Source: Somniosus microcephalus (Eukaryota). From it: a stretch of 64,000 bases of DNA. The stretch is from contig CM126226.1 in assembly GCA_052327205.1 (NCBI GenBank), positions 48,422,001 to 48,486,000 on the forward strand, written 5' to 3'. The notes beneath the pieces are model-generated. The model did no database searches. It had not been told where the DNA came from and saw only the letters and a list, made by a program, of their open reading frames with translations. The translations under genes were made by a program, and so were the position numbers. Of this stretch, positions 7,030-44,480 are shown piece by piece. The stretch's first letter is position 1; the number at the start of each line of letters is the position of its first letter.

Positions 7030-7900
7030 CCTTGCATTTATCAAACGCCTTTAATGGAGTAAACTGCTCAAGGTGCTCCACTTTGGAGAGAACAGAGCTG
7101 CAGTGAGTGAGTTAGAAAAGAGGAGTGAAAGCACAGTTGAAAACATAGGTTTTGAGGAGACTGTTAAGGCAGGGAGAGAAGCAGCAAGGCAAAGAAGTTT
7201 AGGAGAGTAGCGTTTCATGGAGTAGACTAAGACAGCTGACAGTTCTGCTAATAATGGGGAAAGTGGGAGGGGTGTACAGGAGGCAAGAGTCAGAGGACCG
7301 AAGAATATGTTGCAGAAGTAGCGTGCAGCAAGGCAGTGAAGGCATTTGAAAAGTGAGGACAGGGATTTTGAATTCAATGTGCTGGAGGTCAGGGAAACAA
7401 TCGAGGTTAGGGAAGACTAGAATGATAGGCAAGCAGGACTTGGTGTGGGACAGGATGCACAAAGTTTTAGACAAGTTGGAGTTTGTGTAGGGTAAAGCAC
7501 AGGGGGCCACTGAGGAAAGCATCTGAGAAGGCAAATCCTGAGGCAACATAGCATGGATAAGTTGGTAGTAGCGGTGAGGGATAGAGTGCAATGTTGTGGA
7601 GGTGGAAGTGGTCTTGGTAATGGGTAAAACATGGAGTTTAAAACTTATCTTCCAGTCAAACAGGACTTCTGAAGCACAACTGATGGGAAGACAGACTAGG
7701 AGTTCATTAATGAGCACCAACTGGTATACCCTAAGCAAGCAGCAAGAAGGGGTGGAATCTAGGGGCAAAGTTACAGGGTTCTTGAGCAGTAGCTGAGCAA
7801 GATGAATTCAATTATCTCAATCATCTGATCTACAATTTGATGTCAAATAGGCAAGTCTGATAAAAAATAGAGTTGGTTGTGGAGTTGAATATGGTGGTAG
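7030..7900 (-). mobile_element. Degraded L2-clade LINE 3' region
   Basis: Reverse complement aligns with the + strand L2 at 43641-44275 (accaagaccacttccacctcc..., attgaattcaaaatccctgtcctc); ITKTTSTST-type remnants in ORF 7199-7768. Confidence 0.75.
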
Positions 7901-42844: not shown

Positions 42845-43000
42845 CAAGCTGACTACGGCCAGATAGGTTCCAGGTTCAATTCCCAATCGGTCTTGCATAA
42901 CAATAGGGGCAATAACATTGGCCTCAGCACACCAGGTCAGGGAGGGGAGATGTGGGCAGGGTTCTCTATCCTGATTGTTACCAAGTGTGTGTGCATGTGC
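42845..43000 (+). mobile_element. Old SINE fragment (family A)
   Basis: aggttccaggttcaattccc..attggcctcagcacacc..agggaggggaga..cagggttc..tcctgattg. Confidence 0.55.
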
Positions 43001-43109
43001 ATTTAAAAACGTGGTAGCACAAAAGGTGCTAGCATATAACACGTGTCACGGATTTGGGTTTTTTTTAGCGTCTGCAGTTAATCTACCCTCTCCATCACCA
43101 AGACCACCT

Positions 43110-43640
43110 GGAGCTGCTCGACCTTGGGAGGCGATGGCTTTCACTGTGCAGGAGGCGAGGGCCGAGGACACGGTGCACATTGCTCGAATGATCAAGGTGT
43201 ATACTGGGGGTAAATAGGGGCACAGCAAAAGACGGCGATGGTGAAGAGGAGGCCGCATTGGAGCATTCACATCCCGACGATGTGTTCGGCGAGTCGGGCA
43301 GAGGAGCGCAGCGCAACGAGCAGCAGCAGCAGACTCGCGACACGCTGCAGCACGTCGGCCGGCAGCTCCATTTCGGGTAACTCGCAGTCCGGATGGGAGG
43401 AGGGGAGCCGGACATGGTGGGAGAAGCAGGCCACCACACGCGGAGCCGGCAACAGTGAGGAGGCCGCGGTGACGAGGAGGACGGAGCGGCTGAGGGACAT
43501 CGTGCTCCCACTGCCACGGGAAGCCATTGTATTGACTCTGAACGCGGCGCTGTATGTCTAGCTGACGCGTCCCTACGGGGAACAAGCATTCCATTGTACT
43601 TGTTACATATGGCAAATAAATCTAATCTGAATCTGAATCT
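43110..43640 (+). mobile_element. Chimeric retroposed insert: SAT-like exon 1 + GC-rich body + LINE-type (Rex/Babar-like) 3' tail
   Basis: Splits a contiguous L2 sequence; CpG-rich; ends ccattgtacttgttacatatggcaaATAAA + tctaatctgaatctgaatct microsatellite tail; no TSD. Confidence 0.75.
43134..43196 (+). pseudogene. SAT2: Isolated first coding exon of a diamine/thialysine N-acetyltransferase (SAT1/SAT2 family, GNAT)
   Basis: MAFTVQEARAEDTVHIARMIK resembles SAT2 [22 protein letters not shown] and SAT1 [22 protein letters not shown] (recalled); good Kozak gcgATGG; similarity stops at the known exon-1 boundary (..IK|GT). SAT2 vs SAT1 assignment is tentative. Confidence 0.62.
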
Positions 43641-44279
43641 TCCACCTCCATAGCACTGCCCGTCTCCACCCTGCTTCAGCTCATTTGCTGCTGAAACCCT
43701 CAGCCGTGCCTCTGTTAAATCTAGACTCAACTATTTCAAGGCTCACCGAGCCGGCCTCCAACTTTTCATCCTCCGTAAACTTGAGCTCATCCAAAACTCT
43801 GCTGCCCGTGTCCTAACTCGCACCGAGCCCCATTCAACCATCACCCTGTGCTTGCTGACATTGACTCCCAGACCGGCAATGTCTCAATTTAAAATTTCTC
43901 ATCCATGTTTTCAAATCCCTCCATGGTATCGCCCCTCCCTATCTTTGTAACGTCCTCCAGCCCTACAACCCTCCCAAGATCTCTGTGCTCCTCCAATTCT
44001 GGCCACTTGCGCATCCCTGATTCATCACTTCACCTTGACAGCTGTGCCTTCAGATGCCGAGGCCCGAAGCTCTGAAATTCTCTCCCTAAATCTCTCCGCC
44101 TCTCTTTCCTCCTTTAAGACGCTCCTTAAAACCTCTCTCTTTCACCAAGCTTTTAGTGACCTGTCCGAACATCTCTATGTGGCTCGGTGTCAAATTTTGT
44201 TTGATTACGCCCGTGAAGCGACTTGCGACGTTTTAATACGTTAAAGGCGCTATATAAATATACATTGTAGTTGTTGCTC

Positions 44280-44480
44280 TTGAGATCTATGATCGGATAC
44301 TAAAATTCGAACCAACAGATGGCAGTCCGACAAAGCTGGATAACGGAGGAGAGTGTCGGAAGAGGACAGTGTTGCTAACCATGTCAGAGGGTATCATTTG
44401 TGACTTTGATTAGGGCCATTTCAGTACTGTGGCAGTCGCAGTGGGAAAAATTGAATGTTGAGATTCAAAATCAGGAACTG
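44280..44480 (-). mobile_element. Degraded L2 fragment
   Basis: ggagagtgtcggaagaggacag..catttgtgactttgattagggccatttcagtactgtggcag (reverse HSTE.ALIKVTND RT motif). Confidence 0.6.

Follow-up and report, generated by a model that had tools for sequence, protein, structure and literature searches.

The insert at positions 43108-43639 of the window, the 64,000-nucleotide stretch of the Somniosus microcephalus genome analysed here, consists of three parts: the 5' end of a host SAT gene (called SAT2 below, by elimination), a short piece of intron 1 of the same gene attached by splicing, and the 3' part of a non-coding retroposon of about 690 bp. No source of this chimera is present in the assembled parent locus, and the same architecture recurs in four further lineages of the element. 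We favour, with some confidence, a model in which sense insertions of the element trapped host transcripts that were later retrotransposed, the SAT2 source allele having since been lost.

Results

Structure of the insert and its target site

The 532-bp insert lies within a repeat that we take to be L2 (Table 1). It contains 43 CpG, with an observed/expected ratio of 0.94 versus 0.39 for the whole window. A CpG-rich insert that splits an L2 copy and carries a leader, an ATG, AATAAA and (AATCTG)n had already been described from sequence alone, and all of these features were recovered.

Table 1 Features of the insert, its flanks and the other headed lineages
Feature	Position	Strand	Basis or remark
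L2-type repeat, left piece; last 2 nt (CT) common with the head	43087..43109	+	14 related loci
SAT2 5' leader (24-26 nt)	43108..43133	+	genome match; start site inferred
SAT2 exon 1 coding part, 21 codons, ATG at 43134, MAFTVQEARAEDTVHIARMIK	43134..43196	+	parent C41:3042032-3041970
Spacer, 39 nt identical to SAT2 intron 1 from C41:3025573	43197..43235	+	directly after cryptic AG
Join to element; CGG exactly common, 5/6 nt alike; no splice site	43230..43235	+	sequence comparison
3' part (from about nt 285) of ~690-bp non-coding retroposon	43233..43620	+	family alignment
TCT(AATCTG)n tail; without poly(A), without target-site duplication	43621..43639	+	sequence
L2-type repeat, right piece	43640..44280	+	far end read from window sequence only
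ITPKC-like exon 1 copies	L160 G000:C2:162217250-162218850; L170 G000:C32:7580060-7583445		parent exon C34:28329579-28329952
63-nt first exon of multi-copy gene family	L254 C6:8776526-8779548; L279 C23:9190069-9193151		140 candidates
First exon (51 nt) from a different multi-copy family; 860 candidates	L151 C1:197750400-197752000		14-nt spacer, full element
28-nt exon spliced to ~132 nt of zinc-finger coding exon	L197 C2:56161115-56162815		copies seen: 1

The left flank was drawn to 43109 because 11 of 14 related L2 loci keep the upstream sequence, reading like ACCAAGACCGCCTAC/TTCCACC; the remaining three carry other sequence. A search with 43640-43900 gave 5131 candidates, the best others at 83%. 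As judged from L2 family copies, CT is common to insert and flank at both ends, about 1 nt is missing and nothing is duplicated. The L2 continues straight after the insert tail, with no SAT remnant in between. An L1-type retrocopy does not fit this structure, which has a tandem tail, 2-nt microhomologies and a loss of about 1 nt, with neither poly(A) nor a target-site duplication.

Elsewhere in the window, at 7597-7618 (minus strand), lies an old L2-type copy in which the two flanks had been read as contiguous, as at an empty site; this copy has a 4-nt gap of its own that mimics one. An Rfam scan of the whole window found nothing.

The head is the 5' end of a SAT gene

When window 43105-43240 was searched against the 6.4-Gb genome (G000), three matches were returned, including the window itself. 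The other two belong to a single gene on C41: exon 1 of a SAT gene (C41:3041968-3042058, 97% over 91 nt, E = 3e-34) and intron 1 of the same gene (C41:3025535-3025575, 41 nt, 100%, E = 2e-11). The identification of the head as a SAT exon 1 with its leader is thereby confirmed. The SAT head is single-copy genome-wide, which disposes of the suggested SAT-headed non-autonomous family. Head and parent differ at 43144, at 43150 and, within the leader, at 43121. The parent has a TTTAAA box, and the head begins 31 nt after its first T, near the expected transcription start, suggesting a full-length copy.

The parent gene is intact: its six exons (63/52/81/102/41/210 nt) have GT-AG borders and form an open frame for a product of 182 aa with no internal stop. 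Its exon 6 matches both SAT1 and SAT2 structures with E about 1e-8 (38.6 bits for SAT1 versus 37.8 for SAT2); neither exon 1 alone nor exon 4 alone gave a PDB match. A single search using the last exon recovered three SAT genes. The two besides the parent, L089 (C1:340766674) and L090 (C10:67824839), are SAT1-like, scoring 63 versus 34 and 69 versus 39 bits for SAT1 versus SAT2. Since exon 6 of the parent fits SAT1 and SAT2 equally and the other two genes are SAT1-like, these sequence comparisons point to SAT2 as the parent by elimination.

A cryptic splice precedes the join to the element

The spacer that follows exon 1 begins at a cryptic acceptor in intron 1, which lies 16,396 nt from the intron start and 309 nt short of exon 2; the acceptor AG is preceded by a CTAAT branch motif and a pyrimidine tract. 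The sequence AAG|GTGTAT, which the sequence-only reading had taken as the junction of SAT and element, is indeed a splice, one inside the SAT gene; the element itself is joined 39 nt beyond it, at 43230-43235. Intron read-through, the other route then proposed, is contradicted by a junction that skips 16,396 nt. The spacer contains an in-frame TAG at 43215-43217, and the SAT2 copy is probably inert, with its frame ending after 27 codons.

The branch motif and pyrimidine tract of the cryptic acceptor form the 3' end of a very common repeat (matches in 85 of 294 loci), presumably CR1. Such a repeat tail brings both elements of an acceptor, and many of these tails may therefore be latent splice acceptors. 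The tail at the SAT2 site (L033) occupies C41:3025573 and upstream positions. Recursive splicing (AG|GT) was considered for this site and dropped, since it is just 309 nt from exon 2.

RNA reads across the junction, suggested earlier as a check, were absent from the 24% of run X7 that was read: eight sense reads on exon 1 share one start and end at 43197, and none enters the spacer. This is the stop that canonical splicing to exon 2 predicts, which weakly suggests that the cryptic form goes unobserved when the element is absent. Run X8 gave no reads here.

The body belongs to a young high-copy retroposon family

The body of the insert had been called an unrelated sequence ending in a LINE tail. 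It is instead the 3' 60% of a member of a separate, non-coding family of about 690 bp, which starts with (GTC)AAGATGGCGG, has an internal duplication and ends with AATAAATCT(AATCTG)n. Its 38-nt tail occurs 560 times exactly and 2,028 times within 3 mismatches, corresponding to about 2,000 copies. Of the copies sampled (n = 111), 41 span the full length and 70 have a truncated 5' end; the truncation points do not cluster near the joins (3-9 copies per 50-nt bin).

Two deletions, of 9 and 3 nt, are private to the window copy, which also carries six substitutions; the 9-nt deletion is unique in the genome. AATAAA is retained at 43615-43620. Divergence of this copy from the family majority is 1.55%, where 28 unselected copies average 1.66%, in line with the recent retrotransposition that had been supposed. 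Divergence of the element part (6/392) is not distinguishable from that of the head (3/127; p = 0.46). The family is young.

We searched for a classical SINE head and for a partner LINE. No tRNA was found in four of four loci, and one full copy compared with Rfam up to E = 1 had no match; either search could overlook a decayed head. A hairpin in the tail is no better than in shuffled sequences (z = 0.63). None of 30 LINE loci bearing PF09004 gives a significant DNA match to the element, and there is no longer partner element among the 51 tail-bearing loci checked. The PF09004-bearing LINEs in this genome, which we take to belong to the Rex1/Babar clade, end in CATT..TTGTAC..CAATAAA plus a short tandem tail. 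This build is similar to that of the element tail, but the tail unit differs, so the Rex1/Babar parentage suggested by sequence amounts to a resemblance at the level of motifs. One such LINE family (L091-L120) is abundant and young, with 13,752 candidates and (ATTTG)n or (ATT)n tails.

Four further lineages carry spliced host exons

We screened 158 distinct copies of the element by their flanks rather than by CpG content; in 66 of them, termed informative, both flanks lie in one known repeat. Extra sequence of at least 50 nt was present in 10 of the 66, comprising four heads (L160, L197, L254 and L151), three nested repeats, one copy that is ordinary by eye and two others (L184 and L240). Identifiable heads are thus carried by 4 of 66 informative copies, and all four start with a spliced upstream exon; this rate is rough, because best hits, copies from C1-C2 and members of one subfamily were sampled together. 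The sequence added on the 5' side of the element measures 85 nt in L184 (C1:450196413-450198113) and about 24 nt in L186 (C2:1910788-1912488).

In addition to SAT2, the 158 copies yielded four headed lineages: one with an ITPKC-like head (2 copies), and three whose heads derive from multi-copy genes and that are represented by 2, 1 and 1 observed copies. Each of the five heads identified is a spliced upstream exon in sense orientation. In the four further lineages, the upstream exon is followed by a splice, a spacer of 0-132 nt and then the element, and four of the five heads join the element within 39 nt of the splice.

The ITPKC-like join is exact, running from the donor of exon 1 to an AG within the element (nt 302/303), which lacks a pyrimidine tract. 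The parent intron is about 58 kb long, and the two copies retain a fused frame of 141 (L160) and 145 codons (L170). The ITPKC 5' region also has an inverted copy of 78 nt (94%; L171, C34:28322566-28322643), placed 7 kb upstream of the gene. In L254 and L279 the exon ends at a donor and is followed first by a 19-nt spacer that contains an ATG and then by a near-full element, which in L279 lacks the tail. The parent family of the L151 head has zinc fingers 6 kb downstream in the single locus examined, and in L197 the element is joined about 132 nt into a real coding exon; the heads of both are probably 5' parts of multi-copy zinc-finger genes. The origin of the 14- and 19-nt spacers was not found in three 9-kb stretches plus 1.5-kb flanks of parent loci.

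The pairs L160/L170 and L254/L279 occupy different sites, and each pair shares its junction and three uncommon variants, measured against a background that includes some duplicate loci. This sharing implies that a genomic master existed for each pair.

Discussion

A model of exon trapping followed by 5' transduction

We propose that a 5'-truncated element would have landed in sense orientation in SAT2 intron 1, 36-39 nt behind the latent acceptor. Its AATAAA would have turned the region of the acceptor into a terminal exon, with the result that a transcript from the SAT2 promoter would be spliced from exon 1 to the latent acceptor, run into the element and end in its tail. Recognition of this tail by a partner LINE would then have led to insertion of a copy of the entire RNA into the L2 on C25. 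The allele that served as source, in which SAT2 would be truncated, would since have disappeared from the assembly. The three parts, the splice, the lack of a source and the repeated architecture are observed; the source allele, the part played by the poly(A) signal and the involvement of a partner LINE are inferred.

Several observations count for this model. The spacer is the parent's own intron behind an acceptor-like AG, the head starts near the expected transcription start, the same layout is found in four more lineages, the paired copies imply genomic masters, the ITPKC join is exactly donor-to-AG, and the RNA reads on exon 1 agree, if weakly. The 5' transduction proposed from sequence alone therefore stays the best model: a spliced host first exon stands in sense orientation upstream of the element within one insertion.

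Against it stands that none of the lineages yielded a source element. The SAT2 locus (C41:2.98-3.06 Mb, 80 kb) contains no family copy and its intron 1 is gap-free with no N, contrary to the earlier expectation that body and tail would map there. No assembled family copy was found in 160 kb of the ITPKC locus, where intron 1 has two 500-N gaps, and none of 66 exact matches to the subfamily motif falls in the ITPKC region. Since no source was found, trapping has to rely on source loss, assembly gaps and unsearched clusters; a source inside the donor gene may have sat on an allele that was lost or left unassembled. Divergence of the element part does not exceed that of the head or the family mean, so any source was short-lived. 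Also at odds with trapping are the L197 join inside a coding exon, the ITPKC AG with no pyrimidine tract and the two untraced spacers.

The CGG microhomology at the SAT2 join fits template switching equally well. The chief alternative, possible but less probable, is that the parts were joined in trans. After copying about 405 nt of element RNA, reverse transcriptase would switch at CGG to a SAT2 RNA of a rare, cryptically spliced form and run to its 5' end; prior ligation of the two RNAs would have the same effect. The element-free parent locus, the 5/6 nt alike at the join and the equal divergence of head and body are all compatible with such a switch, and 5' truncation in 70 of 111 sampled copies indicates that stalling is common. 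Among human L1 mRNA chimeras, 15 of 17 have no intronic source (bioRxiv 2025.02.02.635956). The paired copies, too, could be parent and daughter of a chimera formed in trans. However, joining in trans requires a rare isoform together with a switch within 39 nt of its acceptor, and it leaves unexplained why five of five heads are upstream exons and four of five joins lie within 39 nt of a splice. A version that starts from a decay fragment cut close to the premature stop gains no support: 0 of 17 positions around the join fit all four defined places of the SMG6 motif, as given in PMC4288159.

Two separate events (a processed SAT2 fragment and a later element insertion that removed its remainder) or an assembly chimera are improbable. 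The head-element join is spanned by none of the 8 contig records examined per run (X1 and X3), and one X3 contig reads exon 1, spacer and then parent intron, a stretch also covered by an X1 contig. Against these readings, the L2 resumes right after the tail, both parts are of the same age, and the flank-head junction (42890-43180) is spanned by contigs of X1 and X3 with 0 and 1 differences. The odd X3 contig would be the expected graph collapse over the shared 41 nt, and the head search found no third genomic copy of the form exon 1-spacer-parent intron. No empty-site piece occurred among 8 records each from X1 and X3, although contigs cannot show absence and the sample behind X1 may be the one that was assembled.

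We give almost no weight to trans-splicing between SAT2 exon 1 and element RNA. This route has been proposed for human L1 chimeras joined at a splice donor before a long intron (bioRxiv 2025.02.02.635956), and it would suit the ITPKC lineage (donor-to-AG join, ~58-kb intron). For SAT2 it is refuted: no splice site marks the join to the element, and the parent reads on AAGAG rather than GT.

Relation to known exon-capturing elements

Exon capture by non-autonomous retroposons has been described mainly for primate SVA and L1. The mechanism is thus known, and we found no report of capture in sharks or by Rex/Babar-type elements, nor for an element of this kind, in a literature search whose coverage of subscription papers and repeat databases is thin. 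The element family itself may already be catalogued.

The closest parallels are human SVA_F1, with MAST2 exon 1, and chimpanzee pt_SVA_D6, with STK40 exon 1 (84 and 94 copies; PMC6139936 and PMC12593883). In these, as in the shark, a non-autonomous GC-rich retroposon gained a GC-rich first exon by splicing, and the source may be polymorphic or extinct. The pt_SVA_D6 join has a short untraced spacer, as do some lineages here. In contrast to their copy numbers, the shark lineages number 1-2 copies seen, and the SAT2 case differs in that the acceptor lies in the host intron upstream of the element. The element is unrelated to SVA. It ends in (AATCTG)n and has neither poly(A) nor a target duplication, so it is not L1-type.

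The human mRNA/L1 5' chimeras (n = 17, including MAP3K13, FHIT and RAP1GDS1; bioRxiv 10.1101/2025.02.02.635956) are similar in having sense first exons, a long downstream intron, a source that is usually absent and one two-copy lineage. There, however, the L1 is mostly near full length and coding, whereas the carrier here is short, non-coding and truncated in two of five lineages; the shark rate of 4 in 66 informative copies also sets it apart. Bipartite non-autonomous LINE derivatives are listed in PMC5786205 only for RTE, Ingi, Vingi and R2. The shark element resembles them in being short and non-coding, with no small-RNA head found, a fixed 5' end and a LINE-like tail, but neither of its ends was matched to an autonomous element.

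Whether the element is an SVA-like exon-trapping retroposon driven by a non-L1 LINE seems to us evenly balanced. On that view, a few percent of its roughly 2,000 copies would carry spliced host first exons, some would propagate, and copies like that of SAT2 would be fossils of lost gene-trap alleles. Propagation as a subfamily is not seen for the single-copy SAT head and is weakly indicated by the two lineages with two copies.

Five independent captures in one young family, in a non-mammal and by an apparently different LINE group, would show exon capture to be a general route; if so, short elements could gain host promoters, and SINE-like heads could arise in this way. Many dated events in one genome would allow a direct test of cis against trans models. 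One full-length sense copy (L215, C2:189717387-189719087) lies about 40 nt behind a GTGAGT motif that follows CpG-rich sequence, and by this context it is possibly an extant insertion in a first intron.
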